The notes under the pieces are model-generated. The model worked only from the letters and a program-made list of their open reading frames with translations. It was not told where the DNA came from and searched no databases. From Candidatus Limnocylindrales bacterium (GTDB lineage Bacteria > Chloroflexota > Limnocylindria > Limnocylindrales > CSP1-4), in assembly GCA_035693125.1 (NCBI GenBank), contig DASSHB010000039.1:613-64612 (forward strand): a DNA stretch of 64,000 nt, read 5' to 3'. Position numbers and translations under genes: made by a program. Positions 11,311 to 47,236 of the stretch are shown here, in pieces. Each line of letters begins with the position of its first letter. Position 1 is the stretch's first letter.

Positions 11311-11501
11311 GCCGATATCGAGCTCCCGCGGTCCGGCCGATCATCGTCGGCGCGACCTGACCGCACCATACCAACAAGACATTCACTGCCCGTTCGCGAA
11401 AGGTTCACTCGCAATCACCGGTGCCGCGCCGCACCGAACCCGCCGCGAATGACCCTAACCTTTACGTGAACGGCAACGTTGTGGCATCATGACCCGCAAC
11501 G

Positions 11502-16679: not shown

Positions 16680-16690
16680 GACCAAATCCG

Positions 16691-31335: not shown

Positions 31336-32172
31336 GTGACTGACGGGACCGTCATCATCATCGGCGGGGCCGAGGACAAGGTCCGGGATCGGGTGATCCT
31401 GAACCGGTTCGTCTCGCTGGCTGGCGGACGCGACGCGACGATCGTCGTGATCTCGACGGCGTCGTCAATGGGCACCGAGGCCGGCGAGCGCTACCGCCAG
31501 ATCTTCACGGATCTCGGCGTCACGACGGTCCGGCCGCTCCACGCGGCGACCCGGCCCCAGGCGAACGACGAGAGCGTCGCCTTTGCCCTGCGTGACGCGA
31601 CCGGCGTCTTCCTGACCGGCGGCAATCAGCTGAAGCTTGCCTCGCAGGTCGGCGGGACGCGGCTGGCGGATGCGATGCTCGAGCGGTTCCGACACGGAGC
31701 GGTCATGGCGGGGACCTCCGCCGGCGCGTCGGCGATGTCGAGTCACATGATCGCGTTCGGGGCGTCGGGAGCCACGCCGAAGCACCGGATGGCCCAGATC
31801 GCGGCCGGCCTCGGGATGCTCCCGGGCGTCATCGTCGACCAGCACTTCCAGCAGCGGAACCGGCTGGGCCGGCTGCTTTCGCTGATCGCCCAGAACCCAT
31901 CGCTGCTGGGGCTGGGCGTGGACGAGGACACGGCCGGCGTCGTGGGTCCGGATCACGTGATGGAGGTCATCGGGCGTGGCTCGATCACGGTTGTCGACGG
32001 GTCCGCCTCCGAGACGGACGCCTGGGAGGTTCGCGGCCACAAGCCGCTGATGATCAGCGGCGTCGTGCTCCACTCGCTGCCGAGCGGCTACCGGTTCGAC
32101 CTGCGCCGCCGGCACCGGCTCGCGACGCCGACGCTCCACGCGCTGCCCGGCGGCGAGGCGGCCTCGGGCTGA
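31336..32172 (+). CDS. cphB: cyanophycinase (peptidase S51, CphB)
   Basis: 'VIIIGGAEDKVRDRVILNRF', 'GTSAGASAMSSHMIAFG' (catalytic Ser in GxSAG) and 'VIVDQHFQQRNRLGRLLSLI...LLGLGVDEDTA' align closely with Synechocystis CphB. The GTG at 31336 is preceded by the GAGGGAG RBS. The ORF opens at 31273. Confidence 0.85.
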   Translation: MTDGTVIIIGGAEDKVRDRVILNRFVSLAGGRDATIVVISTASSMGTEAGERYRQIFTDLGVTTVRPLHAATRPQANDESVAFALRDATGVFLTGGNQLKLASQVGGTRLADAMLERFRHGAVMAGTSAGASAMSSHMIAFGASGATPKHRMAQIAAGLGMLPGVIVDQHFQQRNRLGRLLSLIAQNPSLLGLGVDEDTAGVVGPDHVMEVIGRGSITVVDGSASETDAWEVRGHKPLMISGVVLHSLPSGYRFDLRRRHRLATPTLHALPGGEAASG

Positions 32173-32300
32173 GGCGGCGCGACGCCTGCACTGCCGGGCG
32201 TTCCGTGACCGCCGACCGTTCACCGAACGGGGCCGGCCCAGCAGCCCGAGGACGGCGCCCGCTACACTCGGCCGACTGGCACGAGGGGCAGGAGGGAACC

Positions 32301-35234
32301 GTGGCCCGGACCGCACCGCAGCCTCGCGAGAAGAAGGCCGGGTCAGCCGAGCCCGCGGCGACAGGGTCAGCGCCCGGCGCTGCCGCCGGGGCGCCGTTGG
32401 CGGTCGCCAGACCTCGCCGCCGCGCTGCCGACGGTCACGCGAACGGCAGGCGCCCCGAGCCGAGTCTCCGGATCGTCGAGACCCGGATCCTCCGCGGCCC
32501 GAACTACTGGGCTCGCGAGCCGGTCGTCCGGATGGTCGTCGACCTGGGCGTTCTCGAGGAGTTCCCGAGCAACAAGATCCCCGGCTTCACCGATGCCCTC
32601 GTGGGGCTGCTGCCCAGCCTGGAGGATCACGCCTGCTCGCTGGGCCGGCGGGGCGGCTTCATCACGCGGCTCCGCGAAGGGACGTGGGCCGGTCACATCG
32701 CCGAGCACATCGCGCTGGAGCTCCAGAACCTCGCCGGCACCGACGTCCGCCACGGCAAGACCCGCGGGACCGGCGAGACGGGCCGCTACAACGTGATCTA
32801 CGAGTTCCGCGAGGAGACCGTGGGGGTCGAGGCGGGCAAGATCGCGGTGGCCCTCGTCAACCATCTCGTCGCCCCGGACGACGAGGCCATGAACCTGGAC
32901 TTCATGGCCGAGCTGGAGCGCTTGATCCGGCTCGCGGAGCGGGCCGCGTTCGGCCCGAGCACCCAGGCGATCCTCGACGAGGCGGCCTCGCGCGACATCC
33001 CGTACATCCGGCTCGATCGCCATTCGCTCGTCCAGCTCGGACAGGGCGTTCACCAGCAGCGGATCCGGGCCACGATGACCTCGAAGACGTCGGGGATCGC
33101 GGTCGACATCGCGAGCGACAAGAGCCTGACGAACCGGCTCCTCGACTCGGCCGGCCTCCCGGTTCCCAAGAGCGCGGTCACCGACACCGAGGAGGACACG
33201 GTCGCTGCGGCGATCCGGATCGGCTTCCCGTGCGTGGTCAAGCCGCTCGATGGCAACCACGGCCGCGGCGTCCATCTCGACCTGCGCTCGGAGGAGGCGG
33301 TCCGGGCCGCCTTCCACGGGGCGCGCCGCGAGAGCCGGAGCGGCGATCTCGTCGTCGAGAGCTACGTCGCGGGCAACGACTACCGCTGTCTCGTGATCGG
33401 CGGCAAGGTCGCGGCGATCGCCGAGCGGGTCCCGGCCAGCGTGACCGGCGACGGCGAGCACACGATCCGCCAGCTCGTGGACGTGGCGAACGCGGATCCT
33501 CGTCGCGGAATCGGCCACGAGAAGGTCCTGACCCGGATCAAGGTCGACGCGGCCGCCGAGGAGCTCGTCCGCGAGCAGGGCTGGGGGCTGGACGACACGC
33601 CGCCCCCTGGCACGTTCGTGAAGCTCGCCCTGACCGGCAACATGTCGACGGGCGGAACGTCGATCGACCGGACGATCGAGGCCCACCCCGACAACGTCGA
33701 GATCGCCGAGACGGCCGCCCAGATCGTGGGCCTGGACATCGCCGGGATCGACTTCATCTGCCCCGATATCGCGACGCCCGTCCGGGAGACCGGCGGCGCG
33801 ATCGTCGAGGTCAACGCGGCGCCGGGCTTCCGGATGCACACCCACCCGACCGAGGGCGAGCCGCAGTACGTCGCCCGGCCGGTGATCGACGGCCTGTTCC
33901 CGCCGGGGTCCGGGGCCCGGATCCCGATCATCGCGGTGACCGGCACGAACGGGAAGACGACCACGGTCCGGATGATCGCCCACATCCTGAAGCTCAAGGG
34001 TCGGCGCGTCGGGATGACCTCGACGGATGGGATCGTCATCGACGGACGGCTGATCAAGAAGGGCGACATGTCAGGGCCCAGGTCGGCCCAGATGGTCCTC
34101 CAGAACCCGACCGTGGACACCGCGGTGTTCGAAGTCGCCCGGGGCGGGATCCTGCGCGAGGGCCTGGGGTACGACCGCAACGACGTGGCGGTCGTCACGA
34201 ACGTCACCGGCGACCATCTCGGCATCGGCGGGATCAACACGATCGGCCAGCTGGCGAACGTCAAGGCCGTGATCGTGGAGTCCGTGCCGCGCTCCGGGAC
34301 GGCGGTCCTCAACGCCGACGACGGTCACGTCTACCGGATGGGCCGGCACTGCGCCGGGAAGGTCGTCCTGTTCAGCATGTCGACCCAGAAGGGCGAGGAC
34401 GGCTACGACCGGGTCGACGGCCACACGTCGCGAGGCAACGCGGCGTTCGTCCTCCAGCCCGGTCCCGAGGGCGAGCTGATCGTGCTCCGCCACGGCCCGC
34501 GCACGATGCCGGTCCTGTACACCCACCTGATCCCGGCGACGTTCGGCGGGCGGGCCCGGATGAACGTGGCGAACGCGCTGGCGGCGGCGGCCGCGGCCTG
34601 GGCGGCGGGAGCCCACCTCCACGACATCCGCCAAGGGCTCCGCACCTTCTCCACGTCGTTCTTCCAGGCGCCGGGCCGGCTGAACCTCCTGGACGTGGGC
34701 GGGATCCGGGTCGTCATCGACTACTGCCACAACGTCGACGGGATGCGCCAGCTCGCCGACTTCGTGGACCGGATGATGACCGAGCCGCAGTCCAGGGCGG
34801 GCCGGATCGGACCCTCGACGAACGGCCACGCCCGGAGCGGGCGGGCGATCGGCGTGATCGGCATCCCCGGCGACCGGCGCGACGAGGACCAGCACGAGTA
34901 CGGCGCGATCGCGGCGCGCTCGTTCGACGAGATCATCGTGCGCGAGGACAAGAACCTCCGTGGCCGGGCGCCCGGCGTCTCGGCCGGGAACGTGATCGAA
35001 GGGGTGCGCGCGGCCCGGGCGGGTGGCGGCGCGCGAGCCCTCAAGGCCGAGAAGATCCTCGATGAGATCACCGCCGTCCGGGCCGCCCTCCGCCGAGCCG
35101 CGCCGGGCGACCTCGTCGTGTGCTGCGTCGACGAGGCGATCGCGGTCTACCGCGAGGCGATGGCGGCGGCTGGATCCGCGCGCGGCGCCACGGCGTTCGC
35201 CGACCCGGGCGAGCTCGAGGCCCCCGAAGGCTGA
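32301..35234 (+). CDS. cphA: cyanophycin synthetase CphA (L-aspartate- and L-arginine-adding), full N + ATP-grasp (G) + Mur-ligase-like (M) architecture
   Basis: N-domain 'LRIVETRILRGPNYWAREPVVRMVVDLGVLEEFPSNKIPGF'. ATP-grasp 'GFPCVVKPLDGNHGRGVHLDL...VVESYVAGNDYRCLVIGGKVAAIAERVPASVTGDGEHTIRQL'. M-domain P-loop 'IIAVTGTNGKTTTVRM' and 'VVTNVTGDHLG'. The six-frame ORF starts at 32205. The GTG at 32301 has a GGAGGG RBS. Either way there is a 55-87-aa Ala/Pro/Gly-rich N-terminal extension before the conserved N domain, so the start is uncertain. Confidence 0.85.
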   Translation: MARTAPQPREKKAGSAEPAATGSAPGAAAGAPLAVARPRRRAADGHANGRRPEPSLRIVETRILRGPNYWAREPVVRMVVDLGVLEEFPSNKIPGFTDALVGLLPSLEDHACSLGRRGGFITRLREGTWAGHIAEHIALELQNLAGTDVRHGKTRGTGETGRYNVIYEFREETVGVEAGKIAVALVNHLVAPDDEAMNLDFMAELERLIRLAERAAFGPSTQAILDEAASRDIPYIRLDRHSLVQLGQGVHQQRIRATMTSKTSGIAVDIASDKSLTNRLLDSAGLPVPKSAVTDTEEDTVAAAIRIGFPCVVKPLDGNHGRGVHLDLRSEEAVRAAFHGARRESRSGDLVVESYVAGNDYRCLVIGGKVAAIAERVPASVTGDGEHTIRQLVDVANADPRRGIGHEKVLTRIKVDAAAEELVREQGWGLDDTPPPGTFVKLALTGNMSTGGTSIDRTIEAHPDNVEIAETAAQIVGLDIAGIDFICPDIATPVRETGGAIVEVNAAPGFRMHTHPTEGEPQYVARPVIDGLFPPGSGARIPIIAVTGTNGKTTTVRMIAHILKLKGRRVGMTSTDGIVIDGRLIKKGDMSGPRSAQMVLQNPTVDTAVFEVARGGILREGLGYDRNDVAVVTNVTGDHLGIGGINTIGQLANVKAVIVESVPRSGTAVLNADDGHVYRMGRHCAGKVVLFSMSTQKGEDGYDRVDGHTSRGNAAFVLQPGPEGELIVLRHGPRTMPVLYTHLIPATFGGRARMNVANALAAAAAAWAAGAHLHDIRQGLRTFSTSFFQAPGRLNLLDVGGIRVVIDYCHNVDGMRQLADFVDRMMTEPQSRAGRIGPSTNGHARSGRAIGVIGIPGDRRDEDQHEYGAIAARSFDEIIVREDKNLRGRAPGVSAGNVIEGVRAARAGGGARALKAEKILDEITAVRAALRRAAPGDLVVCCVDEAIAVYREAMAAAGSARGATAFADPGELEAPEG

Positions 35235-35244
35235 CCATCCCGTG

Positions 35245-35955
35245 ATGCCTCGCCCCTGGCTGATCCGGATGCGTTGGCTCGACCTGTTGTTCGCCCACTG
35301 GCCCGTCGACCCGGCCCCGCTGGAGCGGCTGATCCCGCCCCAGCTGGAGCTCGACCGGTTCGAGGACCAGGCTTGGCTGGGCATCGTGCCGTTCACGATG
35401 GACGACGTCGCGCCACGCGGTGTGCCGGCGCCGGGCCGCTTCGCGACGTTCCCCGAGCTCAATGTCCGGACCTATGTCCGGCGCCGGGATCGGCCCGCGG
35501 ATCGCGGAGTCTGGTTCCTCAGCCTGGACGCGGCGTCGTGGTCGACGGTGTGGGGCTCGCGGCTCATCTTCCACCTGCCCTACGTCCACGCCCGGATGTC
35601 GTCGCGACGTGACGGCGACGACGTGCTCTACCGATCGGACCGGGACGATGGGCGATGGCCGCCAGTTCGATTCGCAGCACGCTACCGGTCGACGGGGCCG
35701 CCGGCCCTTGCCGAACCGGGGACCTTCGACGAATGGGCGACGAACCGCCTCCGCCTGTTCTCGGTCGACTCGCGCCGGCGGCTCATCCACGGCGACATCG
35801 CCCACACCGCCTGGCCGCTGGAACCCGCGGAGGCCGAGCTCGACGCGGCCGAGCTGGCCGCCTCGCACGGGATCACCTTCCCGGGCTTCGCGCCGCGGCT
35901 CCGGTTCGCTCGCCGCCTCGACGTCCGCGGCTGGCTGCCCGTCCGCTCTCGGTAG
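35245..35955 (+). CDS. DUF2071 (YqjF-family) protein
   Basis: 'WLDLLFAHWPVDPAPLERLIPPQLELDRFEDQAWLGIVPFTMDDV' is the DUF2071 N-terminal signature. The start is 10 bp after the cphA stop, so it is probably co-transcribed. Confidence 0.6.
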   Translation: MPRPWLIRMRWLDLLFAHWPVDPAPLERLIPPQLELDRFEDQAWLGIVPFTMDDVAPRGVPAPGRFATFPELNVRTYVRRRDRPADRGVWFLSLDAASWSTVWGSRLIFHLPYVHARMSSRRDGDDVLYRSDRDDGRWPPVRFAARYRSTGPPALAEPGTFDEWATNRLRLFSVDSRRRLIHGDIAHTAWPLEPAEAELDAAELAASHGITFPGFAPRLRFARRLDVRGWLPVRSR

Positions 35956-36142
35956 CGGATCGTCGGACCGCCACCAGCGTTATTCCTGGCGTTCACGGTG
36001 CCCGATGGACGATTTGTCCGCCGGATTCGCTTGCACTCGCGTCGATCCAGCGCCGTCAGTGCTAGATCGTCCCCAACGAGCAGCGGATCAGTGCCAATAA
36101 CGCTGACAGCGGTACGCGACGGTCGTCGGAGGATGCGGCCAG

Positions 36143-37927
36143 CTACGCCCGGCGCGGCCGCTCCTGGAGCCGTGGAATCAGCGTCGTCAGCTCGCTGCCG
36201 ACGTCCACCGGACGAGCGCCGAGATCGGCCAAGAGCATGAAGACCTCCTCCCGCTCCTCGTGGCACATCAGGACGATCACCCGGGGCGCGTCGGGCTTCG
36301 CCGCGCCGTCGGCCCGGGCCAGCTCGCCGCGGAGCGCGTCCGTCTCCGAGTCGTACACGGTCACGTCGGCCGTCGATCGTCGAGCCGACGCGATCCCGGC
36401 CAGGATCTCGCCGATCACCGACTCCCGGCTGCGGCCGCGGAGGTACTTCTGCGTCTCCTTGATCGCGACCCGCTGCGCCCGCTGGCCCGCGATCCGGCCG
36501 ATCCCACGGAGGGTGTCGTCCGGCCGATCGCCCGCGGTCCCGATGATCGCCGTGACCGGTGCCGCGCGGCCCGCCGCCCCGCCCGCGATCCCCTCGGCCA
36601 CGTCGAGGACGGCGTTGACCCCGGCCTCGTTGTGGGCGAAGTCGACGATGACGATCCGGGCGCCCAGGCGGAACAGGTTCAGCCGGCCCGGTGAGCGCTC
36701 GGACGAGGGCTGGAAGTCGGCCAGGCCGTCGCGGAGATCGGCGAGCGTCACGCCGAGCCCGCGGGCCGCGCCCGCGGCGGCCAACGCGTTCGCGACGTTG
36801 TGCCGAGCCAGGCCGCCCAGCGTGATCGGCACCCGCTCGACTTCGACGATCCGGTGCTCGACCGGTTCGCCGTCGCGCTCGGCCGCGGCGGAGTGGCCGT
36901 CGATCTCGATCAGCCAGCCGTCGCGGAGGACGTAGCCGCGCCCGCCGCCTGCCACGGCCCGCCGGACGTTCGCGGCGCCACCGGTCCCACCGATCGAGAA
37001 CATCGCGACGTTCGCCCGGACCCGCCGGGAGATCCCGGCAACGAGGGGGTCGTCCCCGTTGAGAACCGCCCAGCCACCTTCGCGGGTGGCCCGCGCGACG
37101 GTCGACTTCACCTCGGCCAGCTCGGGCAGCGTGTGGATCCCCTGGAGGTCCAGGTGATCCGAGCTGACGTTCGTGACGACGCTCGCATCATTCGACTCGT
37201 AGCCCATCCCGCGGAGGACGAGTCCGCCCCGCGCGGTCTCGAGGACGCCGACGTCGAGATCCGATCGTTCGAGGACCTGCCAGGCGCCGCCAGGTCCGGT
37301 CCAGTCGCCCGGCTCGACGAGCCGCTCGTCGACGAGGACGCCATCCGAGGTGGTCGTCCCGACGCGCTTCCCGGCCACCTTGAGGATGTGCGTGATCAGA
37401 CGGGTGACGGTGCTCTTGCCGTTCGTGCCGGTGATCGACACGACCGGGATCCGCCGATCCGCGTCGCGGATCCAGGCCGGCGGCGTGGCACGCGCGTCGG
37501 CGATCCGCGCGGACCAGCGGGCGACCAGCCGCTCCTGGCTCCCCGTCAGGCGAGCTCGGCGAACTGATGACACGTCTCGCTCGGTCAGGGCCAGTGACGC
37601 TTCGGCGATCGTCCGCGCCCGTTCGGCGCCGAGCCATGGCGACGTGACGATCCAGTGGCCCGGGTCGGATGAGCGATGGACGTCGACGCCGCCGCTGCCC
37701 TCGCCGTGATCGGTCCGCAGGCGGCGGATCCAGGCGACGAGCTCGGCGATCGGCTGGGGCCAGTCGCGGGCCGGCACGACGGCGCCGAGATGGACGAGGG
37801 CGTGCCGTCCGGGGCTGCGCTGGCCGTACCACGTCCGGCGCCGCCCGATCGCGACCTCGACCTTCACCACCGGCTCGAGCCGGTAGACGTTGGGGCCTTC
37901 CAGGAGACGGATCTCGATCAGGCGCAC
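36143..37927 (-). CDS. cyanophycin-synthetase-like protein lacking the ATP-grasp domain: CphA-type N-terminal domain fused directly to a Mur-ligase-like (M) domain (~594 aa)
   Basis: The six-frame ORF is 1084 aa (to 39397), but its upstream half is antisense to the M20/ridA genes. The in-frame GTG at 37925-37927 gives 'VRLIEIRLLEGPNVYRLEPVVKVEV...', matching the CphA N-domain opening of 'LRGPNYW'. About 170 aa later comes 'VVSITGTNGKSTVTRLITHILKVAGKRVGTTTSDGVLVDERL...VVTNVSSDHLDLQG...LNGDDPLV', which is near-identical in pattern to the M domain of the cphA in this window. No ATP-grasp segment lies between them. The C-terminal region is CphA-like. Confidence 0.65.
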   Translation of the reverse strand: MRLIEIRLLEGPNVYRLEPVVKVEVAIGRRRTWYGQRSPGRHALVHLGAVVPARDWPQPIAELVAWIRRLRTDHGEGSGGVDVHRSSDPGHWIVTSPWLGAERARTIAEASLALTERDVSSVRRARLTGSQERLVARWSARIADARATPPAWIRDADRRIPVVSITGTNGKSTVTRLITHILKVAGKRVGTTTSDGVLVDERLVEPGDWTGPGGAWQVLERSDLDVGVLETARGGLVLRGMGYESNDASVVTNVSSDHLDLQGIHTLPELAEVKSTVARATREGGWAVLNGDDPLVAGISRRVRANVAMFSIGGTGGAANVRRAVAGGGRGYVLRDGWLIEIDGHSAAAERDGEPVEHRIVEVERVPITLGGLARHNVANALAAAGAARGLGVTLADLRDGLADFQPSSERSPGRLNLFRLGARIVIVDFAHNEAGVNAVLDVAEGIAGGAAGRAAPVTAIIGTAGDRPDDTLRGIGRIAGQRAQRVAIKETQKYLRGRSRESVIGEILAGIASARRSTADVTVYDSETDALRGELARADGAAKPDAPRVIVLMCHEEREEVFMLLADLGARPVDVGSELTTLIPRLQERPRRA

Positions 37928-38027
37928 GGTTCGGGGATCGTACTGCGCCGCCTCGCGCCGTTTCGAGGGCTGTCGCGCCTGCGCGACGAACGCCGTCGTC
38001 ACGTGGTGCGCCGATAGACTTTCGGCG

Positions 38028-39266
38028 ATGGACACCCTGATCGAACCGGGCGCTGGCGTCTCCGACGCGGAGTTGACGGCGCTTCGCGACACGGTGGCCG
38101 CGGCCGAGGCGGAGTACCTCGAGGAGCTCGCCCGGCTCGTCGACACCGACTGCGGCTCGTACACGCCGGCGGGCGTCGACGAGATCGGCCGTTTCGTCGG
38201 GTCCTTCATGGCCGCCGACGGAGCGCGGGTCGAGGTCCGGCCGGACCCCGACGGGCGGCTCGGGGCGACGGTCATCGGGACGTGGGACGGCGCCGCCGGG
38301 ACGGCAGGCGGCCCGCGGATCCTCCTGATCGGCCACATGGACACGGTCTTCGATCCGGGCACCGCCGCGGCTCGACCGTTCGCGATCGATGCAGCGGGCA
38401 TCGCCCGCGGTCCGGGCGTGACGGATATGAAATCGGGACTGCTCGCCGGCCTCCATGCGGTGCGCGCGCTGCGCGCCGCGGGGCCGCTGCCGTTCGAGCG
38501 GCTGACGTTCGTGGCGAACCCCGACGAGGAGATCGGCTCGCCGAGCTCGACCCCCCACATCCGCGAGATCGCGGCGGAATCGGACGTGTGCCTGGTCCTG
38601 GAGTGCGCTCGGGCGAACGGCAACATCGTGTCGTCCCGGAAGGGGATCCTCGACGCTCGCGTGGAGGTCCACGGGCGTGCCGCGCATGCCGGGGTCGAGC
38701 CGGAGAAGGGCCGCTCGGCGATCCTCGCCGCGGCCGATCTGGTGACCCGGCTCCACGCGTTGAACGGGCGCTGGGACGGGGTGACGATCAACGTCGGCGT
38801 GATCGGCGGTGGCACGCGGCCCAACGTCGTCGCCGAGTCCTGCTCGTTCGAGGTCGATCTGCGGGCCGTCCGCCGCGCCGATCTCGAGGCAGCCGAGGCC
38901 GTCATCCGCGCCGAGCTGAGGCGGCTCGCCGTGCCCGACACGACTGCCGAGCTGACCGAGATGGCGCGATGGTGGCCGATGGAGAAGCTCGAACGGTCCG
39001 GCCGGCTCGTCGACCATGCCGAGGCGGTCGCCCGCCGGCTCGGCTTCGAGATCCACGACCAGGCCACCGGCGGCGCATCGGACGCGAACACGACCGCCGG
39101 GATGGGCGTCCCCTCGATCGACGGACTGGGCCCGATCGGCGGACGGGACCACTCGCCCGCGGAATACCTGGAGGTCGCCTCGATCGTGCCGCGGACCGCG
39201 CTGCTCGCCGGGCTGCTCGCCGCGATCGGGCGCGACCCGGCCGTCCTGGGCTGGCGCGCCGGGTGA
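38028..39266 (+). CDS. M20-family metallopeptidase (glutamate carboxypeptidase / dipeptidase-like)
   Basis: 'ILLIGHMDTVF', 'GVTDMKSGL', 'NPDEEIGSPSS' and 'HGRAAHAGVEPEKGRSAI' are the M20 metal-binding and catalytic blocks. The ATG at 38028 (MDTLIEPGAG) is used. The ORF upstream from 37890 is junk. It is divergent from the CphA-like gene, with a 100-bp intergenic region. Confidence 0.75.
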   Translation: MDTLIEPGAGVSDAELTALRDTVAAAEAEYLEELARLVDTDCGSYTPAGVDEIGRFVGSFMAADGARVEVRPDPDGRLGATVIGTWDGAAGTAGGPRILLIGHMDTVFDPGTAAARPFAIDAAGIARGPGVTDMKSGLLAGLHAVRALRAAGPLPFERLTFVANPDEEIGSPSSTPHIREIAAESDVCLVLECARANGNIVSSRKGILDARVEVHGRAAHAGVEPEKGRSAILAAADLVTRLHALNGRWDGVTINVGVIGGGTRPNVVAESCSFEVDLRAVRRADLEAAEAVIRAELRRLAVPDTTAELTEMARWWPMEKLERSGRLVDHAEAVARRLGFEIHDQATGGASDANTTAGMGVPSIDGLGPIGGRDHSPAEYLEVASIVPRTALLAGLLAAIGRDPAVLGWRAG

Positions 39267-39652
39267 GCGGGCGGCAGCTCGTGTCGAGTGGCGGCCCGTA
39301 CGAGGCGGCCTACGGCTACAGCCGCGCCGTGGCCGTCGGCGACGGCTGCTGGGTCGCCGGCACGACCGACGCCGGGCCGGACGGTCGATCCACCCACGCG
39401 GGCGACGCGGCCGGCCAGGCGCGGGCCGCGTTCGGGATCGCCATCCGGGCCCTCGCGGACGCGGGGTTCCGGAGCGAGGAGGTCGTCCGGGTCCGGATGT
39501 ACGTGGTCCGGGCGGAGGATGCGACGGCCGTCGCCGGCGTCAACGGCGAGCTGTTCGGGTCGATCCGGCCCGCCGCCACCCTCGTCCGCGTGGCCGGGTT
39601 GATCGATCCGTCGCTCCTCGTCGAGGTCGAGCTCGAGGCGCGCCGCGCCTGA
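39263..39652 (+). CDS. RidA/YjgF-family reactive-intermediate deaminase
   Basis: 'SSGGPYEAAYGYSRAV...' (the GPY motif) and the C-terminal 'RPAATLVRVAGLIDPSLLVEVELEA' are typical of RidA. The GTG at 39263 overlaps the M20 stop (GTGA). An alternative GTG is at 39281. Confidence 0.65.
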   Translation: MSGRQLVSSGGPYEAAYGYSRAVAVGDGCWVAGTTDAGPDGRSTHAGDAAGQARAAFGIAIRALADAGFRSEEVVRVRMYVVRAEDATAVAGVNGELFGSIRPAATLVRVAGLIDPSLLVEVELEARRA

Positions 39653-39701
39653 CGATGGCTGGCGCGGATCGCGACTCGCGGCTGCTCGCCGGGCGACGCG
39701 A

Positions 39702-39989
39702 TCAGCGGTCGGTGGTGCGCGTTGCCTGGCCCACGCGTCCGTAGACGATGGCGACGGCCGTCTTCGTCTGGTAGCCGCTTGCCTCGGAGAACATCGCGCC
39801 GGCGTGGCGGAGGGGCATGACCGTCATCGAGACGATCCATTCGCCGCCGGCGGCTCGGCGGCCGGCATCGTCGGCGACCGCCCCGAAGATCGCCCTCGGG
39901 TCGAGCTCCTGGCCGCTGTCCAGCGGCTCGTAGACGACGATCGCCTGATCCGGACCCGCCGGCAGCTCGACCATCTGGATCGGATCCAT
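39702..39989 (-). CDS. hypothetical protein (95 aa)
   Basis: GC3-rich ORF 'MDPIQMVELPAGPDQAIVVYEPLDSGQELDPRAIFGAVADDAGRRAAGGEWIVSMTVMPLRHAG...'. No recognisable motif. Confidence 0.35.
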   Translation of the reverse strand: MDPIQMVELPAGPDQAIVVYEPLDSGQELDPRAIFGAVADDAGRRAAGGEWIVSMTVMPLRHAGAMFSEASGYQTKTAVAIVYGRVGQATRTTDR

Positions 39990-40004
39990 CGCGCCCCCTT
40001 CGAG

Positions 40005-40334
40005 CTACTCCCAACCGGCTCCGCGGCCGGCGATCGCGATGATGACCGCAACGAGCAGGCCGAGGAAGAGGTTCCGCCGCCAGGCGACGAGCGCGATGCA
40101 GGCCCCGACTGCCAGCCACGGCAGGCCGACGACGACGAGGGATTGGCCGTTCCGTGTCTGGACGACGGTGTTGACGGTCGCGAGCGAGGCCAGGACGGCA
40201 GGTCCCACCAGCTGGAGATAGGCCAGGGCGCGCCGCGGCAGCCGGTCGATCGCCGGGTTCAGGAGGCCGATCGCCCGCGAGGGATAGGTCACCGCCCACA
40301 TCACGACGGCGAGCGGGACGAGGTCGGTGCTCAC
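40005..40334 (-). CDS. azlD: AzlD-family branched-chain amino acid transport protein (small subunit)
   Basis: The real product starts at the GTG at 40332-40334 (VSTDLVPLAVVMWAVTYPSRAIGLL..., ~109 aa, three to four TM). This overlaps the azlC stop (GTGA). The long ORF to 40724 is Arg/Gly-rich junk. Confidence 0.65.
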   Translation of the reverse strand: MSTDLVPLAVVMWAVTYPSRAIGLLNPAIDRLPRRALAYLQLVGPAVLASLATVNTVVQTRNGQSLVVVGLPWLAVGACIALVAWRRNLFLGLLVAVIIAIAGRGAGWE

Positions 40335-41269
40335 GACGGTCGGCCGCGGTCGTCGGTCGGGTGATCGTGGACCACTCCGGGCATCCCGAAGCGCTCGGCC
40401 GAGGCCTCGGTCCCGAGGGGCGCGGTCTCGCGCGCGGCAGCCTCGGGGACGAGCAGGCCCGCGAGCGGACCCGCGATGCCCCCCGCGATCACCCCGATCG
40501 TCGGATCCCACGCGACGGAGGCCGCGACCCCGATGACGCCCCCGGCGATGGCCGCGACCAGCTCGCGCCGCCCGGTCAGCAGGGTGACGGCGAGGCCGCC
40601 CATCGCGGCGGGGAAGATCACGTCGATGCCGAGCGCCTTCGGATCCACGACGGCGCCACCGAGCATCACCCCGGCGAACGTCGCCACGTTCCACGGGATC
40701 AGCGTCGTGACGATCGCCGCCCACCAGTAGCCGAAGCCATCGAACCGGCCGATCCGCCGGAAATGGGCGATCGTCAGCGCGAACGCCTCATCCGTGAGGA
40801 GGTGGGCGGCGACGGCCCGCTCCACGAACGAGCGACCCCGGAACCACGGGGCCATGGCCGCGGAGTACAGCACGTGGCGGGCGTTGAGCAGGAGCGTGAA
40901 GAGCGCGATCGCCGGCCAGCCGAGACCGCGCGCCACGAACCCGACGGCCGCGAACTGGGCCGCGCCCGCGAACGCCACCAGGCTGAACGCCATCGCCTCG
41001 AGCGGCGAGAAGCCGGCGCTGGTCCGCGCGGTCAGCCCGAAGACGAAGCCGAAGCCGGCCGCGCTGACGACGATCCCGAGGCCGTCGATGACCAGCTGGC
41101 GCCGAGAGGCGCGGAGATCGCCCGCGCCGCCCGCTGCGGGATCGGTCAGCGGAGGAAGGTCTTGGCGCAGGTTCCGTCGCAGACGACGAACAGGGCGTGC
41201 TTGTCCAGGGCGTAGCCGGCCACGTGGAGCAGGCCGGGACAGCCCGTCGTGGGGCATTTCCAGACCCAC
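40331..41269 (-). CDS. azlC: AzlC-family branched-chain amino acid permease (large subunit); start uncertain
   Basis: 'LVIDGLGIVVSAAGFGFVFGLTARTSAGFSPLEAMAFSLVAFAGAAQFAAVGFV' matches the AzlC N-terminal region. The M1 (41269) and M5 starts would overlap the small ORF at 41146..41418 by ~120 bp. I found no ATG/GTG/TTG between residues 41 and 65. Confidence 0.6.
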   Translation of the reverse strand: MGLEMPHDGLSRPAPRGRLRPGQARPVRRLRRNLRQDLPPLTDPAAGGAGDLRASRRQLVIDGLGIVVSAAGFGFVFGLTARTSAGFSPLEAMAFSLVAFAGAAQFAAVGFVARGLGWPAIALFTLLLNARHVLYSAAMAPWFRGRSFVERAVAAHLLTDEAFALTIAHFRRIGRFDGFGYWWAAIVTTLIPWNVATFAGVMLGGAVVDPKALGIDVIFPAAMGGLAVTLLTGRRELVAAIAGGVIGVAASVAWDPTIGVIAGGIAGPLAGLLVPEAAARETAPLGTEASAERFGMPGVVHDHPTDDRGRPS

Positions 41270-41418
41270 CAGCGGCTCTGCCCGTCGAGCGGGGTCGTCT
41301 CGGCCTTCAGCGTGTCGGCCAGACCCTCACGCGACGTTACGAGGGCACCCACGCGCGCCGAGCGTTCCGCTTCGGTCTCGCTCGTGTACGGGTAGTTCTG
41401 GCCGACGTTCGAGGTCAC
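41146..41418 (-). CDS. small Cys-rich hypothetical protein (90 aa)
   Basis: '...WWVWKCPTTGCPGLLHVAGYALDKHALFVVCDGTCAKTF' has a CxxxxC...CxxxC arrangement suggesting a metal-binding microprotein. GC3-rich. Its status is unclear because of the overlap with the azlC 5' region. Confidence 0.3.
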   Translation of the reverse strand: MTSNVGQNYPYTSETEAERSARVGALVTSREGLADTLKAETTPLDGQSRWWVWKCPTTGCPGLLHVAGYALDKHALFVVCDGTCAKTFLR

Positions 41419-41570
41419 GGGGCCTCCCTCGGGCTGGGCGAAGAGAAGCCGGTGGCGGCAGTCGTGTGAGCGCAGCGCGCCACCGGAGCCCCGAGTCTAA
41501 CGCGAGGACCCGCGAGACGGAATGACCGCGTCGTCCGTTGGCCTTGCGGCGCGGGCGCCCGGCCCGAGCG

Positions 41571-43253
41571 CTACCAGACCGCCGGCAGGCCGGCGCTCCG
41601 GGGGTCCGTGGCCGCCGCCAGGGAGCCGCCGTCCTGGGCCGGCCCGCCGTTCACGAGTTCGATCCCGTGGGCGTGCCCCAACGCGCCGTTGAACGGGATC
41701 GTTCGCTTCAGCGGATGGCCCATCGCCTCTAGCGCATCGAGCACCTCGGCGGCGTAGCGTCGCTCCGCGCGGACGTTGACGGGCGGGGTGAAATGGGCTG
41801 GGCCGTCCACGAACCAGCGTGGCGCCCCGACGGCGCTCGCGACGTCCAGCCCGCCATCGACCAACGCGGACACGACCTGGGCGTGGATCTGCGGCTGGGC
41901 GTCCCCGCCCATCGACCCGGTCACGATCCACGGCCGCCGCTCGCCGCTCCGGAACAGCATCCCGGGGAGGAGCGTGTGGAGGGTCCGCTTGCGCGGCGCC
42001 AGGACGTTGGGATGATCCGGGTCCAGGGAGAAGTACGAGCCGCGGTTCTGGTAGTGGATGCCGGTCACGGGATCGACGACGCCCGAGCCGAAGCCCATGT
42101 AGTTCGACTCGATCAGGCTGACCGCGTTGCCCGCCGCATCGACCGTCGCGAGGTAGATCGTCCCGCCGCCGCGCGGGTTGGTCGCCGCCGGCGGCATGGC
42201 GGCCCGGGCGGGATCGATCGAGCGGGCGAGCTCGGCGGCGTAGGCCTTCGAGATCAGCCGCTCGACGGGGATGTCCAGGAACTCCGGGTCCGTCAGCCAG
42301 CGATCCCGATCGGCCATCGCCAGCTTCGCGGCCTCGATCCCGAGATGGACCCAGCGCGCCTCGGCGACCCCGTTCGGCCCGAACGCCTCGGGCGCCGGCG
42401 GCTCGAAGGTCTCGAGGAGGTTCAGGAGCTCGAGGGCGACCATCCCGGAGCTGTTGGGCGGATGAGTCGTCACCCGGACGCCGCGGTAGTCGGCCGCGAT
42501 CGGCTCCGTCCAGGTCGAGCGGTGCTCCCGGAGGTCCCCCGCGGTGATCAGCGACCCGACAGCGGCCAGCCCGGCGGCCTGCCGATCGGCCAGGTCGGAG
42601 TCGTAGTAGGCATCGAAGCCGTCGTCGGCGAGCCGCCGGAGGGTCGCCGCGAGGGCCGGCAGGCGGACCAGCTCGCCCGGGTGCCACGGGCGTCCGGCCG
42701 GTCGGTAGACCTGCTCGAAGCCCGATCCGGGGCCCAGCGCCTCAACGACTGCCGGGAGCGTCGTCTCGACCGCCGAGATGAAGCCGTCCCACGCGGGGAA
42801 TCCGTCCTCCGCGAGCTGGATCGCGGGGCCCAGGATGTCCGCACGTGACAGGCGGCCGTGACGGGCGTGGGCATCGCCCCACGAGCGAACGGCACCCGGG
42901 ACGGTGATCGTGTGCGGACCGCGCGCCGGCAGCGTCTCGAGGCCCTGGGCGAGCATCCGCCCCGGATCCGCGGCGGCGGGTGCCCGGCCCGATCCATTCA
43001 ACGCGGTTTGGTTGCCGGTCGCCTCGTCCCAGATGAGCCAGAACGCGTCGCCGCCGATCCCGCACCCGGACGGCAGGACGACGCCGAGGACCGCATTCGT
43101 CGCGATCGCCGCGTCGACCGCGTGTCCACCGCCGCGGAGGATCGCCAGACCCGCGGCCGTCGCCAGATGATGCGGCGCGACGACGGCTCCGTGCCCGCCG
43201 CGGACCAGCGGCTGCGGGACGAGCGGGTGCGCCCGGGTCTCGACCTCGGCCAT
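41571..43253 (-). CDS. ggt: gamma-glutamyltransferase (GGT, Ntn hydrolase)
   Basis: Part of a 1318-aa run-on ORF. The ATG at 43251-43253 (MAEVETRAHPL...) gives 561 aa. 'GGHAVDAAIATNAVLGVVLPSGCGIGGDAF', 'TITVPGAVRSWGDAHARHG' and the catalytic-Thr region 'PRGGGTIYLATVDAAGNAVSLIESNY' are GGT signatures. Confidence 0.8.
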   Translation of the reverse strand: MAEVETRAHPLVPQPLVRGGHGAVVAPHHLATAAGLAILRGGGHAVDAAIATNAVLGVVLPSGCGIGGDAFWLIWDEATGNQTALNGSGRAPAAADPGRMLAQGLETLPARGPHTITVPGAVRSWGDAHARHGRLSRADILGPAIQLAEDGFPAWDGFISAVETTLPAVVEALGPGSGFEQVYRPAGRPWHPGELVRLPALAATLRRLADDGFDAYYDSDLADRQAAGLAAVGSLITAGDLREHRSTWTEPIAADYRGVRVTTHPPNSSGMVALELLNLLETFEPPAPEAFGPNGVAEARWVHLGIEAAKLAMADRDRWLTDPEFLDIPVERLISKAYAAELARSIDPARAAMPPAATNPRGGGTIYLATVDAAGNAVSLIESNYMGFGSGVVDPVTGIHYQNRGSYFSLDPDHPNVLAPRKRTLHTLLPGMLFRSGERRPWIVTGSMGGDAQPQIHAQVVSALVDGGLDVASAVGAPRWFVDGPAHFTPPVNVRAERRYAAEVLDALEAMGHPLKRTIPFNGALGHAHGIELVNGGPAQDGGSLAAATDPRSAGLPAVW

Positions 43254-43255
43254 CG

Positions 43256-44617
43256 TCACGCGGCTCCCGGTTCGCTGGTTCCCGCCGCGAGCTCCGGCTG
43301 CTCCATCGCCAGTCGATGCTCCGCGTTTCGCAGGAATGACAGCGGCAGCAGCGCGACGATCAGGACGGCGATCGTTCCGAACAGGAGCCCGTCGATGCCC
43401 TGCCACTCGGCCGCGTAGCCGCCGATCAGGCTCCCACCGATCTGGCCGAACGCAAGGAACACCGAATAGAGGCCCATGATCGCGCCGCGATCCTTCGGGA
43501 ATTTCTCGGACATGTCGGCGAGCAGGCCGACAGCGGCGGGAGTCGCACCCGCGAGGACGAACAAGCCCCCGGCCGCGACGGCGGCGGCCGCGAGCGGCAG
43601 GGCGATCGGCATCCCGTCCGCATGGTTCACGACGAACGCGCCAATCGCCATCACGCCGCCCCCGAGGATGCCCATGCCGATGATCGTGGTGCGACGGAAC
43701 GTCTGGAACCGGTTGCCCCAGTACAGCAGCCCGGCCGCGAAGACGACGCCGATCGCCACGGCCGCGAGCGAGATCTGCATCGGCGAGAAGCCGCGCATCA
43801 GCAGCTGTTCGGGGAAGCGCGGATTCGCCCGCGAGAAGTTGAAGATCGCCTGGCTGAACCAGAGCCCGATCGAGGCGTTCACCGCGACCCATGTCGGGGC
43901 CAGGAGCCAGACGTGCGACGAGCGCAGCAGGTCGACGTAGCGGTGCAGGTCCATCCGGGGCCGCCGCGCGGCCGCCCGCCGTTCGGCCCGCTCGAGGCCC
44001 TGCCGATCTTCCACGCCGAGGAAGTACACGAGGAACGAGGCCCCGTAGACGAGCGCGTTCAGGAAGAACGCCGCCGGCCCGATCGCCGCGAAGAGCAGCG
44101 GCGCGGCAACGAGTCCGACCCCGATCCCCGCCAGCGTCGCCCCCTCGAACCGGGCGGCCGCCTTCCCTCGGAGCAGCTCGTTGCCCGCGGTCACGAGCGC
44201 GATGTAGCCCAGGATCGATGGAACGCTCGCCGCGGTCGACGCGCCTTCGAGGACCCGCGTCCCGCCCAGGACGGCGAGGTTCGTGGTCAGGCCCGTGAGG
44301 ATCACCGCCACCGCGCCGAACGCCGGTCCGGCCAGCATCATCCGGTGGTGGCCGAACCGGTCGGACAGGACACCGAACAACGGCGAGAGGATCAGCTCGC
44401 TGACGTAGAAGGCCGCGTACAACCAGGCAATGGTCGTGGCCTCGATGAACGGGCCGCCGTGGAGGTGGAGCTGCGACAGGTAGATGCCCAGCATCGTCCC
44501 CGTGAGGCCGGTGCTGAAGCGGAGCGTGAAGGTGCCGCCGAGCACGGCCCAGAGGGAACGATCCATTCCCTTCCAGCGTAGCGGCTCGGCGGGATGGACC
44601 ACGGCAACCGATGTCAC
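43256..44617 (-). CDS. MFS transporter
   Basis: 453 aa and polytopic ('GTFTLRFSTGLTGTMLGIYLSQL', 'ILSPLFGVLSDRFGHHRMMLAG'). Its stop abuts the ggt start (2-bp gap). An alternative start is the internal MDRSLWAV. Confidence 0.7.
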   Translation of the reverse strand: MTSVAVVHPAEPLRWKGMDRSLWAVLGGTFTLRFSTGLTGTMLGIYLSQLHLHGGPFIEATTIAWLYAAFYVSELILSPLFGVLSDRFGHHRMMLAGPAFGAVAVILTGLTTNLAVLGGTRVLEGASTAASVPSILGYIALVTAGNELLRGKAAARFEGATLAGIGVGLVAAPLLFAAIGPAAFFLNALVYGASFLVYFLGVEDRQGLERAERRAAARRPRMDLHRYVDLLRSSHVWLLAPTWVAVNASIGLWFSQAIFNFSRANPRFPEQLLMRGFSPMQISLAAVAIGVVFAAGLLYWGNRFQTFRRTTIIGMGILGGGVMAIGAFVVNHADGMPIALPLAAAAVAAGGLFVLAGATPAAVGLLADMSEKFPKDRGAIMGLYSVFLAFGQIGGSLIGGYAAEWQGIDGLLFGTIAVLIVALLPLSFLRNAEHRLAMEQPELAAGTSEPGAA

Positions 44618-44726
44618 ACCCCTCGTACGGACGTTCGGCCTGCTCCGGTCGCGAAGTCGGAGCGCGAAATCTCGGCGTCCGCCCCCGTATCATCCGGCCC
44701 TGGGGAGTGCCACTCTGGAGGGAGCC

Positions 44727-45575: not shown

Positions 45576-45849
45576 GGCGGCTGGGAGGGGCTCGCCAACA
45601 GGCGGGCTGGCCGTGCCATTCGGCCGGGAGGATCAGGACCTTGGTTGCGGGTCGGTTGCGGCCGAGTTGCGCTAGGGTCATTCGGCGAGGACCGTCGCGG
45701 AGACGCCCGGCTATACTCGCAGCGGCATTTGACGCGCCGATCGCCCAACGACGCGAGCGGCGCCCCGTGGGGTCGTCCGGGAGACGACTCGGAACCTTGC
45801 CGCCCCGGCCCCGATCGGGGGAGGCGGCCACGGAGGTCCACTTCACACC

Positions 45850-47115: not shown

Positions 47116-47130
47116 ATCGTCGTTCCGCGA

Positions 47131-47168
47131 CGCCGGCCGGTCCCGAGGACCGGCCGGCGTTTTCGATT
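47131..47168 (+). terminator. Rho-independent terminator downstream of gdh
   Basis: Perfect 13-bp GC-rich stem (cgccggccggtcc / ggaccggccggcg) with a 3-nt loop, followed by TTTTCGATT. Confidence 0.7.
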
Positions 47169-47172
47169 CCCG

Positions 47173-47196
47173 CATCACCATCACCATCACCACCAC
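47173..47196 (+). repeat. (CATCAC)3-CACCAC hexanucleotide microsatellite (His6-tag-like sequence) in noncoding DNA
   Basis: catcaccatcaccatcaccaccac, read directly. It lies between the gdh terminator and the TetR promoter and is not within any credible ORF. Confidence 0.8.
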
Positions 47197-47236
47197 GGAC
47201 CGGTTGCGCGCCGTCCCGGATCGTCGTATCGTGACC

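Follow-up and report, generated by a model that had tools for sequence, protein, structure and literature searches.

Cyanophycin is a nitrogen-storage polymer that is made by cyanophycin synthetase 1 (CphA1), an enzyme built from N, G and M domains (N-G-M), and, in some cyanobacteria, by CphA2. Within CphA1, the N domain and the Mcore jointly form a polymer site that holds the end of the polymer at the M active site, where roles for K499 and T500 of the M domain have been described in SuCphA1 and TeCphA1 (PMC9427784), and the D585A/H586A mutation inactivates the M domain (PMC9262961). CphA2, a paralogue found together with CphA1, retains only one of the two catalytic activities: its G domain is active, and its M domain is truncated and inactive (PMC10273328). 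Additionally, further CphA relatives were classed as "cyanophycin ligase-like" in groups VII and X of Füser and Steinbüchel (2007), which were re-tabulated in 2013 (PMC3646047, Table S2 and Fig. S3); the tabulated and figured portion of these phylogeny papers gives neither a domain analysis nor a function for the two groups.

This study considered a cyanophycin locus within a window of 64,000 nucleotides (the whole stretch of DNA that was analyzed) from a Limnocylindrales-like Chloroflexota metagenome-assembled genome. The six-gene layout proposed in a first-pass annotation was recovered gene for gene and position for position. The genes cphB and cphA1 and a DUF2071 gene, all on the plus strand, converge on a gene on the minus strand (36143-37927) encoding a CphA paralogue that has N and M domains and no G domain (an N-M protein), and genes encoding an M20 metallopeptidase and a RidA-family protein diverge from that paralogue; both orientations were confirmed in the sequence, from which a divergent intergenic spacer of exactly 100 bp (37928-38027) was read. 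A simple scan of positions 35900-38100 returned no sigma-70-like or terminator-like sites, a result that is uninformative at the 72% GC of this Chloroflexota DNA. Overall, the locus is an ordinary cyanophycin cluster (cphB-cphA1) together with a conserved stand-alone N-M enzyme.

Results and Discussion

Genes surrounding the paralogue

The cphB gene (31336-32172, plus strand) encodes a cyanophycinase of peptidase family S51 that is matched by PF03575 and reaches the equivalog cutoff of TIGR02069 (E 2e-79; 266.6 bits versus a cutoff of 126.6), and cphB also adjoins cphA1 at related loci including L001-L003, L006, L008, L011 and L013. The neighboring cphA1 (32301-35234, plus strand, with an alternative GTG start at 32205) encodes a full-length N-G-M synthetase according to TIGR02068 (1133 bits versus a cutoff of 850) and to its Pfam domains: Cyanophycin_syn N (PF18921), ATP-grasp/RimK, Mur_ligase_M and Mur_ligase_C. 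An Ala/Pro/Arg-rich leader of about 55 residues precedes the N domain, which carries the Cx19HxxEH motif, and all of the M-domain catalytic residues are present. The DUF2071 gene (35245-35955, plus strand; PF09844, E 4e-64) starts 10 bp past the cphA1 stop codon, and its product has no sequence relative in the PDB. This gene is missing from the same position in L001 and L002, so its presence in the cluster is not conserved; as a candidate core partner it was ruled out, with none found at N-M loci outside the lineage of the window.

On the other side of the paralogue, the M20 metallopeptidase (38028-39266, plus strand; PF01546 and the M20_dimer domain PF07687) resembles carboxypeptidase G2. Its best NCBIfam match was the glutamate carboxypeptidase model PRK06133 (275 bits, below the cutoff of 349), and its PDB matches were 1CG2 (E 7e-39) and, weakly, the poly(aspartic acid) hydrolase 7LJH (E 4e-11). 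The gene for the RidA/YjgF-family protein (39263-39652, plus strand; PF01042, E 6e-16; TIGR00004 at 36 bits, below cutoff) has a GTG start that overlaps the M20 stop codon (GTGA), so the two are translationally coupled, and the same 4-bp overlap was seen in L001. It had been proposed that this pair would fit the turnover of beta-dipeptides or imino intermediates. The window, L001 and L002 are, however, the only loci at which the pair adjoins the paralogue, and every N-M locus outside this lineage lacks it; the pair was therefore rejected as a core component of the system. M20-RidA is a lineage-specific neighbor that may act as a hydrolase of peptides with C-terminal acidic residues or of beta-Asp peptides.

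Architecture and fold of the paralogue

The paralogue comprises 594 residues and starts at a GTG codon at position 37927 (MRLIEIRLLEGPNVY), where most of its homologues also begin. Its N domain (residues 1-155; 37463-37927, minus strand) has a CphA-type fold, and its M domain (residues 156-594; 36143-37462, minus strand) is full length, with both Mcore and Mlid. Mur_ligase_M and Mur_ligase_C were the only Pfam matches: PF08245 was matched with an E value of 1e-20, with Mur ligase superfamily domains and an ATP P-loop present, and PF02875 with an E value of 2e-5 and 26 bits, slightly below its cutoff of 28.4, the same model being matched in 55 of 56 members of the family. On TIGR02068, the paralogue aligned only to model positions 474-839 of 862 and scored 366.7 bits, under the cutoff of 850. 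A search for a hidden ATP-grasp domain found none in Pfam or NCBIfam at any threshold, and no N-M member gave a phmmer match to cphG. Lacking the ATP-grasp G domain, the paralogue therefore cannot extend a poly-Asp backbone.

The N-terminal 155 residues aligned with CphA1 N domains by hhalign over 153 columns (98.5% probability, E 3e-15). When the N-terminal 159 residues were searched in isolation against Pfam, no match was returned even at an E value of 10, PF18921 included; recognizing the CphA N-domain homology took a profile-profile comparison. A structure model built from close homologues only was unusable (pLDDT 49), and a diverse alignment was used instead, yielding a model with pLDDT 90 and pTM 0.91. 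The top Foldseek match of this model was SuCphA1 (7LGJ), in an alignment that runs from N into M and skips G (TMq 0.73-0.74), and an M-only alignment to TeCphA1 gave a TMq of 0.61; the M domain was aligned to residues 485-842 of SuCphA1 with Mcore and Mlid complete. The N domain is without the Cx19HxxEH metallopeptidase site, A61, V64 and A65 standing at the equivalents of H79, E82 and H83. The domain searches, the TIGR02068 span, hhalign and Foldseek all bear out the N-M-only architecture that had been read from the sequence at first pass. A vestigial G-domain stub was also noted in the N-M protein.

Catalytic residues and a family-specific loop

The ATP-binding P-loop TGTNGKST (residues 166-173; 37409-37432, minus strand), in which K171 corresponds to K499 of SuCphA1 and TeCphA1, is invariant throughout the N-M family, and the catalytic Asp-His pair D257-H258 (37154-37159, minus strand), corresponding to D585-H586 of SuCphA1, is invariant in both the N-M and CphA1 families. 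In total, N169, K171, S/T172, E230, D257-H258, K274, R415 and H432 are invariant in N-M proteins, with N497, K499, T500, E557/558, D585-H586, R731 and H748 as the SuCphA1 and TeCphA1 matches. All ATP, Mg and catalytic residues of the CphA1 M domain are thus retained in the paralogue, and the two families have approximately 50 conserved positions in common, some of them in CphA-specific motifs like GD-x-(T/S)GP.

Decay of the gene had been named as one outcome that would undermine the initial reading. The gene has not decayed into a pseudogene: it is under purifying selection, with a dN/dS of 0.18 (0.13 for the N domain alone), the catalytic residues are intact, and many orthologues share the architecture. 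By its sequence it is apparently an active enzyme. A remnant of a decaying second cphA, or a cell-wall (MurE-like) Mur ligase present here by chance, would fit the loss of a whole CphA1 domain and the generic annotations "Mur ligase family protein" and "UDP-N-acetylmuramyl tripeptide synthase"; the data on the paralogue already refute this explanation, leaving it a negligible probability. A purely non-catalytic role for the N-M protein, in which it would bind to CphA1 or to the polymer as a partner or regulator (scaffold, granule protein or ATP sensor), is also very unlikely. Tight operon linkage would suit such a function, and CphA2 offers a precedent for CphA domains that persist without catalysis (PMC10273328), but the ATP, Mg and catalytic residues of N-M proteins are invariant at approximately 30% identity, which is typical of an active enzyme, and the inactive M domains of CphA2 are truncated whereas those of N-M proteins are full length.

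A sharp departure from CphA1 in the M domain lies in a family-specific loop, KETQKYLRGR (residues 490-499; 36431-36460, minus strand), directly before the conserved RGR. CphA1 enzymes have (K/R)(E/R)D-x-x-LRGR at this site, and the Asp ahead of RGR is kept in 93% of CphA1 versus 2% of N-M proteins, which additionally carry a one-residue insertion, usually Tyr. A few full-length N-G-M enzymes (L033, L050 and P0233) have the N-M-type loop, showing that this loop type can occur without the loss of G. By a by-eye alignment, this loop may be the counterpart of the amino-acid-binding DNPR loop of MurE. With the amino-acid-side loop remodelled by the loss of Asp and the insertion of Tyr, the amine substrate, or its recognition, probably differs from the arginine of CphA1. 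The earlier suggestion that a different amino acid is used thereby gains one supporting point. The sequence does not single out any one role among side-chain exchange, priming and branching.

Distribution of N-M proteins and linkage to cphA1

More than 120 close full-length homologues of the paralogue, of approximately 590 residues, were found, along with dozens of full-length N-M representatives at 33-45% identity, and the family as a whole diverges to approximately 30% identity. In the tree, 60 of 63 N-M M domains fall in one clade that is separate from, and sister to, the CphA1 M domains, and the N-M tree parallels that of the neighboring CphA1s. The class is represented in Chloroflexota, Actinomycetota, Pseudomonadota, Myxococcota, Planctomycetota and Acidobacteriota, and its genes generally lie no more than a few kb from cphA1/cphB. 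Specifically, N-M genes stand beside cphA1/cphB in the window, L001-L004, L006, L008, L009, L011-L013 and L017 (Chloroflexota and Actinomycetota) and in L042, L052, L056, L059, L065, L073, L079 and L081 (Pseudomonadota, Myxococcota, Planctomycetota and Acidobacteriota). The finding of the same paralogue near cphA1 in many unrelated lineages indicates that the arrangement in the window is not a chance juxtaposition. Culturable carriers include Kribbella, Terrabacter, Plesiocystis and Luteimonas.

Among the N-M-seeded loci with enough flank, approximately 15 of 19 have a cphA1 within 8 kb. In L084, the gene is part of an amidohydrolase-cphB-cphA1-NM operon, and in L086 and L087 the cphA1 stop codon lies 2-3 bp ahead of the NM start. 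No cphA1 was found within 8 kb of the N-M gene in L010, L083, L088 and the outlier L076; either the association is not obligatory, or these genomes carry cphA1 at another site. Conversely, in a sample that was deliberately enriched, about one cphA1 locus in four had an N-M neighbor. Recurrent neighbors in Actinomycetota (fabG1-inhA, moaA, an ECF sigma factor, a Dyp peroxidase and others) were attributed to synteny within the lineage and showed no evident connection to the paralogue. Combined, synteny conserved in at least six phyla and operon fusion in some members strongly support a functional tie between the paralogue and the neighboring CphA1, as the first-pass annotation had supposed from co-localization in a single genome.

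The loci without a nearby cphA1 would suit a ligase of small molecules, in which the N domain would be only a structural cap and the product an amino acid conjugated to a beta-aspartyl or other acyl group, such as a beta-Asp-X dipeptide, a primer or an osmolyte. The missing cyanophycin-cleaving Zn site in the N domain is also in keeping with this explanation, as are most Mur-ligase relatives, whose substrates are small molecules. It is nevertheless considered unlikely, given the proximity of cphA1 at most N-M-seeded loci and the parallel phylogenies, and given an N domain that is under strong purifying selection and that, in CphA1, forms the polymer site with Mcore.

In the partner CphA1s, the catalytic residues of the M domain are all present, as is the peptidase motif of the N domain. 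The N-M protein is therefore an addition and not a replacement, and the candidate explanation that it substitutes for a dead M domain in the neighboring CphA1 was ruled out. The same intact M domains bear on whether the N-M protein could be an auxiliary arginine ligase with the chemistry of CphA1-M, supplying extra M capacity or rescuing released Asp-ended chains with no change in composition. Nearly all conserved M positions, including RGR and E528/E834, are common to the two families, and the translational coupling to cphA1 in L086 and L087 suggests co-expression at a fixed ratio. Such a function would, however, be added to partners whose M domains are already intact, and 98% of N-M proteins lack the family-distinguishing acidic residue, which is of the kind expected to contact a basic side chain; the auxiliary arginine ligase is accordingly rated as improbable. 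Use of arginine at the same chain end would duplicate the CphA1 M domain, and the benefit of that is unexplained.

Proposed role

The reading preferred here, to which roughly even chances are given, is that the N-M enzyme may be a side-chain ligase acting in trans on chains made by CphA1, possibly with an amine other than the arginine used by CphA1. The data establish the architecture and fold, the intact catalytic residues, the purifying selection, the clade structure and the genomic linkage; the polymer substrate, the chemistry and any change in specificity are what we infer. The enzyme would have descended from a CphA1-like synthetase through loss of the ATP-grasp G domain. It would bind a cyanophycin or oligo-Asp chain ending in a C-terminal Asp with a free beta-carboxylate, activate that carboxylate with ATP to an acyl-phosphate, and then couple an amino acid to it via the alpha-amino group, the chains being supplied in trans by the neighboring CphA1.

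A more specific version, which is put forward tentatively and is rather doubtful, is that the N-M protein is a dedicated ligase of a non-arginine residue onto the Asp beta-carboxylates of CphA1 chains, so that bacteria with both cphA1 and the N-M gene would make an unrecognised mixed or capped cyanophycin-like polymer. If this were true, specificity would be set by the remodelled KE-x-x-x-Y-LRGR loop. More generally, if the N-M enzyme modifies, caps or completes the polymer, the natural composition of cyanophycin and its regulation outside cyanobacteria would need to be revisited, and the enzyme could become a tool for tailored cyanophycin side chains. The loop signature, the G-domain stub and the culturable carriers make the role of the N-M protein directly testable.

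Comparison with known systems

The M20 gene product belongs to none of the families of the isoaspartyl and cyanophycin dipeptidases IadA, IaaA and CphZ (amidohydrolase, Ntn-asparaginase and M14/AstE). The paralogue itself appears, from sequence comparison, to share the central and C-terminal fold, the P-loop and the acyl-phosphate chemistry with MurE, other peptidoglycan Mur ligases, FolC and MurT, from which it differs in its N-terminal domain, in similarity (E values of approximately 1e-12 or weaker) and in reaching no family cutoff. Scores on the NCBIfam models for MurE, MurC, MurD and MurF were far below cutoff (101 versus 257 for murE, TIGR01085), and, unlike the cell-wall Mur ligases, the paralogue has a CphA-type N domain and a cyanophycin genomic context. 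The uncharacterised Pfam family DUF4938 (PF16292) covers the N-terminal region and the start of M in some long-N members of the same clade as the paralogue (for example P0200, E 5e-29); at its cutoff of 32 bits it is matched by 4 of 56 relatives and by neither the window paralogue nor most short-N members. No functional study of a G-less CphA, of CphA3 or of DUF4938 was found in the literature.

The premise that N-M-only relatives of CphA had gone unrecorded probably does not hold in view of the "cyanophycin ligase-like" groups of the 2007 and 2013 phylogenies (PMC3646047), whose members, as listed there, are CphA paralogues encoded beside a true cphA, as are most of the N-M proteins here. From the organism and the adjacent accessions, the Plesiocystis pacifica SIR-1 pair ZP_01912973 (group VI) and ZP_01912972 (group VII) would correspond to the cphA1 and N-M genes of L059, and the tabulated actinobacterial IX/X pairs (Kribbella, Janibacter and Nakamurella) are spaced as in L004, L017, L008 and L011. 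The accession pairs of Plesiocystis, Kribbella and Janibacter, as opposed to sequences, thus suggest that the N-M class equals groups VII and X. On this correspondence, the paralogue would belong to a class that is already known but uncharacterised. The metagenome-assembled genome of the window is not among the PMC3646047 table entries.

Compared with CphA1 (7LG5, 7LGJ, 7LGQ, 7WAC and 7LGM), the paralogue shares the CphA-type N domain and the full-length M domain, whereas it is without the entire G domain and the Cx19HxxEH primer-generating peptidase site, has a pre-RGR loop that lacks the conserved Asp and is one residue (Tyr) longer, and scores below the TIGR02068 cutoff. Like CphA2 (7TA5), it is a CphA relative that has lost one catalytic activity and stands alongside CphA1; unlike CphA2, it is the G domain that is gone and the M domain that is full length. 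The N-M protein represents a third conserved architecture beside CphA1 and CphA2, with its catalytic residues intact and with a genetic association with cphA1/cphB that extends over at least six phyla.

Gene content of the locus

Every gene reported here by the first-pass annotation was confirmed at its coordinates by ORF listing together with Pfam and NCBIfam searches. Within the window (72% GC), cphB (31336-32172) passes the NCBIfam cyanophycinase equivalog model, and cphA1 (32301-35234, or from 32205), encoding N, ATP-grasp (G, backbone-extending) and Mur-ligase (M) domains, passes the cyanophycin synthetase equivalog at 1133 bits. An Ala/Pro/Arg-rich leader of ~55-88 residues (32205-32468) precedes the N domain of this full-length synthetase, and its true start (32205, 32301 or later) is uncertain. 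The protein carries the Cx19HxxEH motif, which has been tied to primer-generating activity (PMC9262961). A DUF2071 gene starts 10 bp past cphA1. On the opposite strand to cphA1, the CphA paralog (36143-37927) is a 594-aa ORF whose GTG start at 37927 is fixed by an alignment of 28 homologs; exactly 100 bp separate it from a divergent M20 peptidase gene (38028-39266), and the GTG start of a RidA-family gene (39263-39652) overlaps the M20 stop as GTGA.

Architecture and conservation of the paralog

The claim that the paralog consists of N and M domains without G was upheld by several lines of evidence. Pfam returned Mur_ligase_M and Mur_ligase_C and nothing else, and the cyanophycin synthetase model matched at positions 474-839 only (367 bits, below the 850 cutoff). 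BLASTP against the window CphA1 gave 39% identity across the M domain; residues 1-40 additionally showed a short match with the beginning of its N domain. The N-terminal 155 residues were not recognized by Pfam; a profile of N-termini from the paralog and its relatives (the N-M family) aligned with the CphA1 N-domain profile at 98.5% probability (E 3e-15, 153 columns). In this alignment, the helix that bears H79/E82/H83 in SuCphA1, a structurally characterized CphA1, is kept with A61/V64/A65 in their place, and the Cys loop is absent, so the N-M N domain has lost the zinc peptidase site. A confident AlphaFold model built from a diverse alignment (pLDDT 90.1, pTM 0.91) had SuCphA1 as its top Foldseek match (E 5e-37, ~900 alignment columns), with an alignment that covers N and then M to its end and bypasses G. 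The query-normalized TM-score was 0.73-0.74 for SuCphA1 versus 0.61 for an M-only alignment to the second reference structure, TeCphA1.

The first-pass annotation had also allowed for a decayed pseudogene, a reading that was rejected because the reading frame is uninterrupted, over 120 equally long proteins are 81-100% identical, dN/dS against the ortholog in L001 (the locus of an 83%-identical relative) is 0.18 overall (N domain 0.13, M 0.21), and the catalytic residues are invariant. Specifically, the Su/TeCphA1 M-domain residues for ATP/Mg binding and catalysis (N497, K499, T500, E557/558, D585-H586, R731 and H748; PMC9427784, PMC9262961) all have invariant equivalents across the N-M family. 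A 100%-identical protein in a 'Candidatus Limnocylindrales' (Chloroflexota) MAG carries no annotation beyond 'Mur ligase family protein', and names across the family are similarly generic or wrong ('cyanophycin synthetase', 'hypothetical protein', 'UDP-N-acetylmuramyl tripeptide synthase').

The N-M family and its linkage to cphA1

When 1.8 billion representatives were searched exhaustively with HMMER, many full-length N-M proteins (520-610 aa, 33-45% identity) were recovered, none of which had a G-domain match. In a neighbor-joining tree built from 93 M domains, which is distance-based and not bootstrapped so that the broad split alone is trusted, 60 of the 63 N-M sequences form one pure clade apart from CphA1. 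This clade has two halves: group i, with a short N region, from Chloroflexota and Actinomycetota and including the window paralog, and group ii, with a longer N region partly matched by Pfam DUF4938, from Pseudomonadota, Myxococcota, Planctomycetota and Acidobacteriota. Within the N-terminal ~190 aa of group ii proteins (L056, L059, L073, L081, P0197, P0208, P0241 and others), a vestige of ~40 residues (consensus paL-aL--aA--RgvPfL..DDd-vsvG-G) can be aligned with the opening segment of G in CphA1, suggesting that an N-G-M, CphA1-like ancestor gave rise to the family through deletion of its G domain.

Linkage was surveyed in a scan covering a single genome for each species, after which the window proteins were used as tblastn queries. 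In many loci cphA1, usually with cphB, lies 0.1-6 kb from the N-M gene. For group i these are L001-L003 (Limnocylindrales, Chloroflexia), L013 (Thermomicrobiales), L004 and L017 (Kribbella), L008 and L011 (Terrabacter), and L006, L009 and L012 (Actinomycetota MAGs); for group ii, L042, L052 and L056 (Luteimonas and other Gammaproteobacteria), L059 (Plesiocystis), L065, L073 (Planctomycetaceae), and L079 and L081 (Acidobacteriota). For three further group ii representatives, the N-M protein served as an independent entry point to the locus: P0197 belongs to an amidohydrolase-cphB-cphA1-NM operon, and only 2-3 bp lie between the cphA1 stop and the N-M start in P0208 and P0241. Approximately 15 of the 19 N-M-seeded loci with enough flank are linked to cphA1, a gene present in only ~6% of complete genomes (PMC9974463). 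No cphA1 was found within 8 kb of the N-M gene in L010, L083 (P0146), L088 (P0140) and the outlier L076.

Two further features of these neighborhoods were observed. The Sphaerobacteraceae locus L010 has a second Mur-ligase-like gene (11423-12889), MurT-like by eye. In seven Actinomycetota loci (L004, L005, L008, L009, L011, L012, L017) the N-M gene is directly downstream of fabG1 (mabA)-inhA-like SDR genes, with moaA nearby, a conserved gene order that has no evident connection to cyanophycin.

In the same M-domain tree, the CphA1s beside group i and group ii N-M genes form two matching clusters. Because the neighboring CphA1s keep intact M domains and N-domain peptidase motifs, the N-M enzyme is an addition to CphA1 and no substitute for it.

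M-domain loop and proposed role

The CphA1 and N-M families share an identical residue, conserved at 85% or more, at approximately 50 positions of the alignment, including motifs judged to be CphA-specific such as GD-x-(T/S)GP. A single position is strongly kept in CphA1 and gone from N-M: the Asp of (K/R)(E/R)D-x-x-LRGR, which 93% of CphA1 and 2% of N-M proteins carry. The N-M consensus, K-E-x-x-x-(Y/H)-L-R-G-R, is one residue longer, and the window paralog reads KETQKYLRGR (residues 490-499). By our own by-eye alignment, this pre-RGR loop would correspond to the DNPR motif with which MurE holds the diamino acid to be added. Absence of the acidic residue there would fit a changed amine substrate; use of an amine other than Arg, giving a mixed or capped polymer, is a tentative possibility. 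A few full-length N-G-M enzymes (L033, Pyrinomonadaceae; L050, Gemmatimonadetes; protein P0233) share the N-M loop type (e.g., KENEAYRRGR) and may be CphA1 variants with altered side-chain specificity.

As judged from sequence and predicted structure, the N-M protein keeps the N and Mcore parts that form the CphA1 polymer site, plus a complete catalytic set, making a trans-acting ligase on cyanophycin or oligo-Asp ends its most likely role. Such an enzyme would bind a chain end with a free beta-carboxylate, activate that carboxylate with ATP and ligate an amino acid onto it, working in trans on CphA1-made chains, with backbone extension impossible. A small-molecule acceptor in place of a polymer and ligation of Arg, as rescue or extra capacity, are each considered unlikely; the N-M protein may also bind CphA1. 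The interest lies in the possible effect of these widespread enzymes on cyanophycin, which is now sharply testable.

Other neighboring genes

Of the earlier interpretation, the N-M architecture and the cphA1 linkage stand, and the proposed pairing with M20-RidA is limited to the window, L001 and L002 (a Chloroflexia MAG); this association is lineage-specific. The M20 enzyme is carboxypeptidase-G2-like (E 7e-39) and weakly resembles poly(aspartic acid) hydrolase in sequence (PDB 7LJH, E 4e-11); it could conceivably trim acidic C-termini or beta-Asp peptides. According to PMC10206079, which makes no mention of M20, loci that lack IadA and IaaA have other hydrolases clustered with cphA1-cphB.

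The DUF2071 position is taken by other genes in L001, where it is a beta-lactamase-family gene, and in L002. In L001, cphB and cphA1 are additionally separated by an inserted PhdYeFM antitoxin gene with a small partner ORF (16555-17286). In L002 the M20 and cphA1 matches (6652-7872 and 10039-12762) are split over reading frames, probably through long-read assembly frameshift errors rather than as real pseudogenes. Downstream, window positions 39700-47200 constitute an amino-acid metabolism neighborhood of AzlC/AzlD-like genes, gamma-glutamyltranspeptidase, MFS transporters and a Glu/Leu/Phe/Val dehydrogenase (identities inferred from the L001 Pfam table), in an order common to L001 and L002.

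Comparison with catalogued groups

The first-pass premise that known synthetases are N-G-M or N-G-truncated-M probably overlooked an existing class: Table S2 and Fig. S3 of PMC3646047 list 'cyanophycin ligase-like proteins' under the groups of Füser & Steinbüchel (2007), and the paralog class is therefore probably already catalogued phylogenetically. In the literature searched, nothing on a G-less CphA was found beyond this listing, and no domain dissection, specificity analysis or function of the class. The window protein would thus add a Chloroflexota member to an already catalogued, uncharacterized class. The listing includes adjacent group VI/VII pairs in Colwellia, Francisella, Congregibacter, Octadecabacter, Herpetosiphon and Plesiocystis pacifica SIR-1 (ZP_01912973/ZP_01912972), and IX/X pairs in Janibacter, Kribbella flavida and Nakamurella. 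In our survey, L059 is Plesiocystis pacifica SIR-1, with cphA1 followed directly by the N-M gene; its match to the published VI/VII pair rests on the organism and the adjacent accessions. The same source lists IV/V tandems in Betaproteobacteria, where we observed tandem cphA genes in L055, L062, L064 (Nitrosomonas europaea), L069, L070, L077 and L080: one N-G gene in first place, whose M domain stops after ~250 residues, then a full-length gene that matches weakly in the N domain. These tandems correspond to groups IV/V and differ in kind from the pair in the window.
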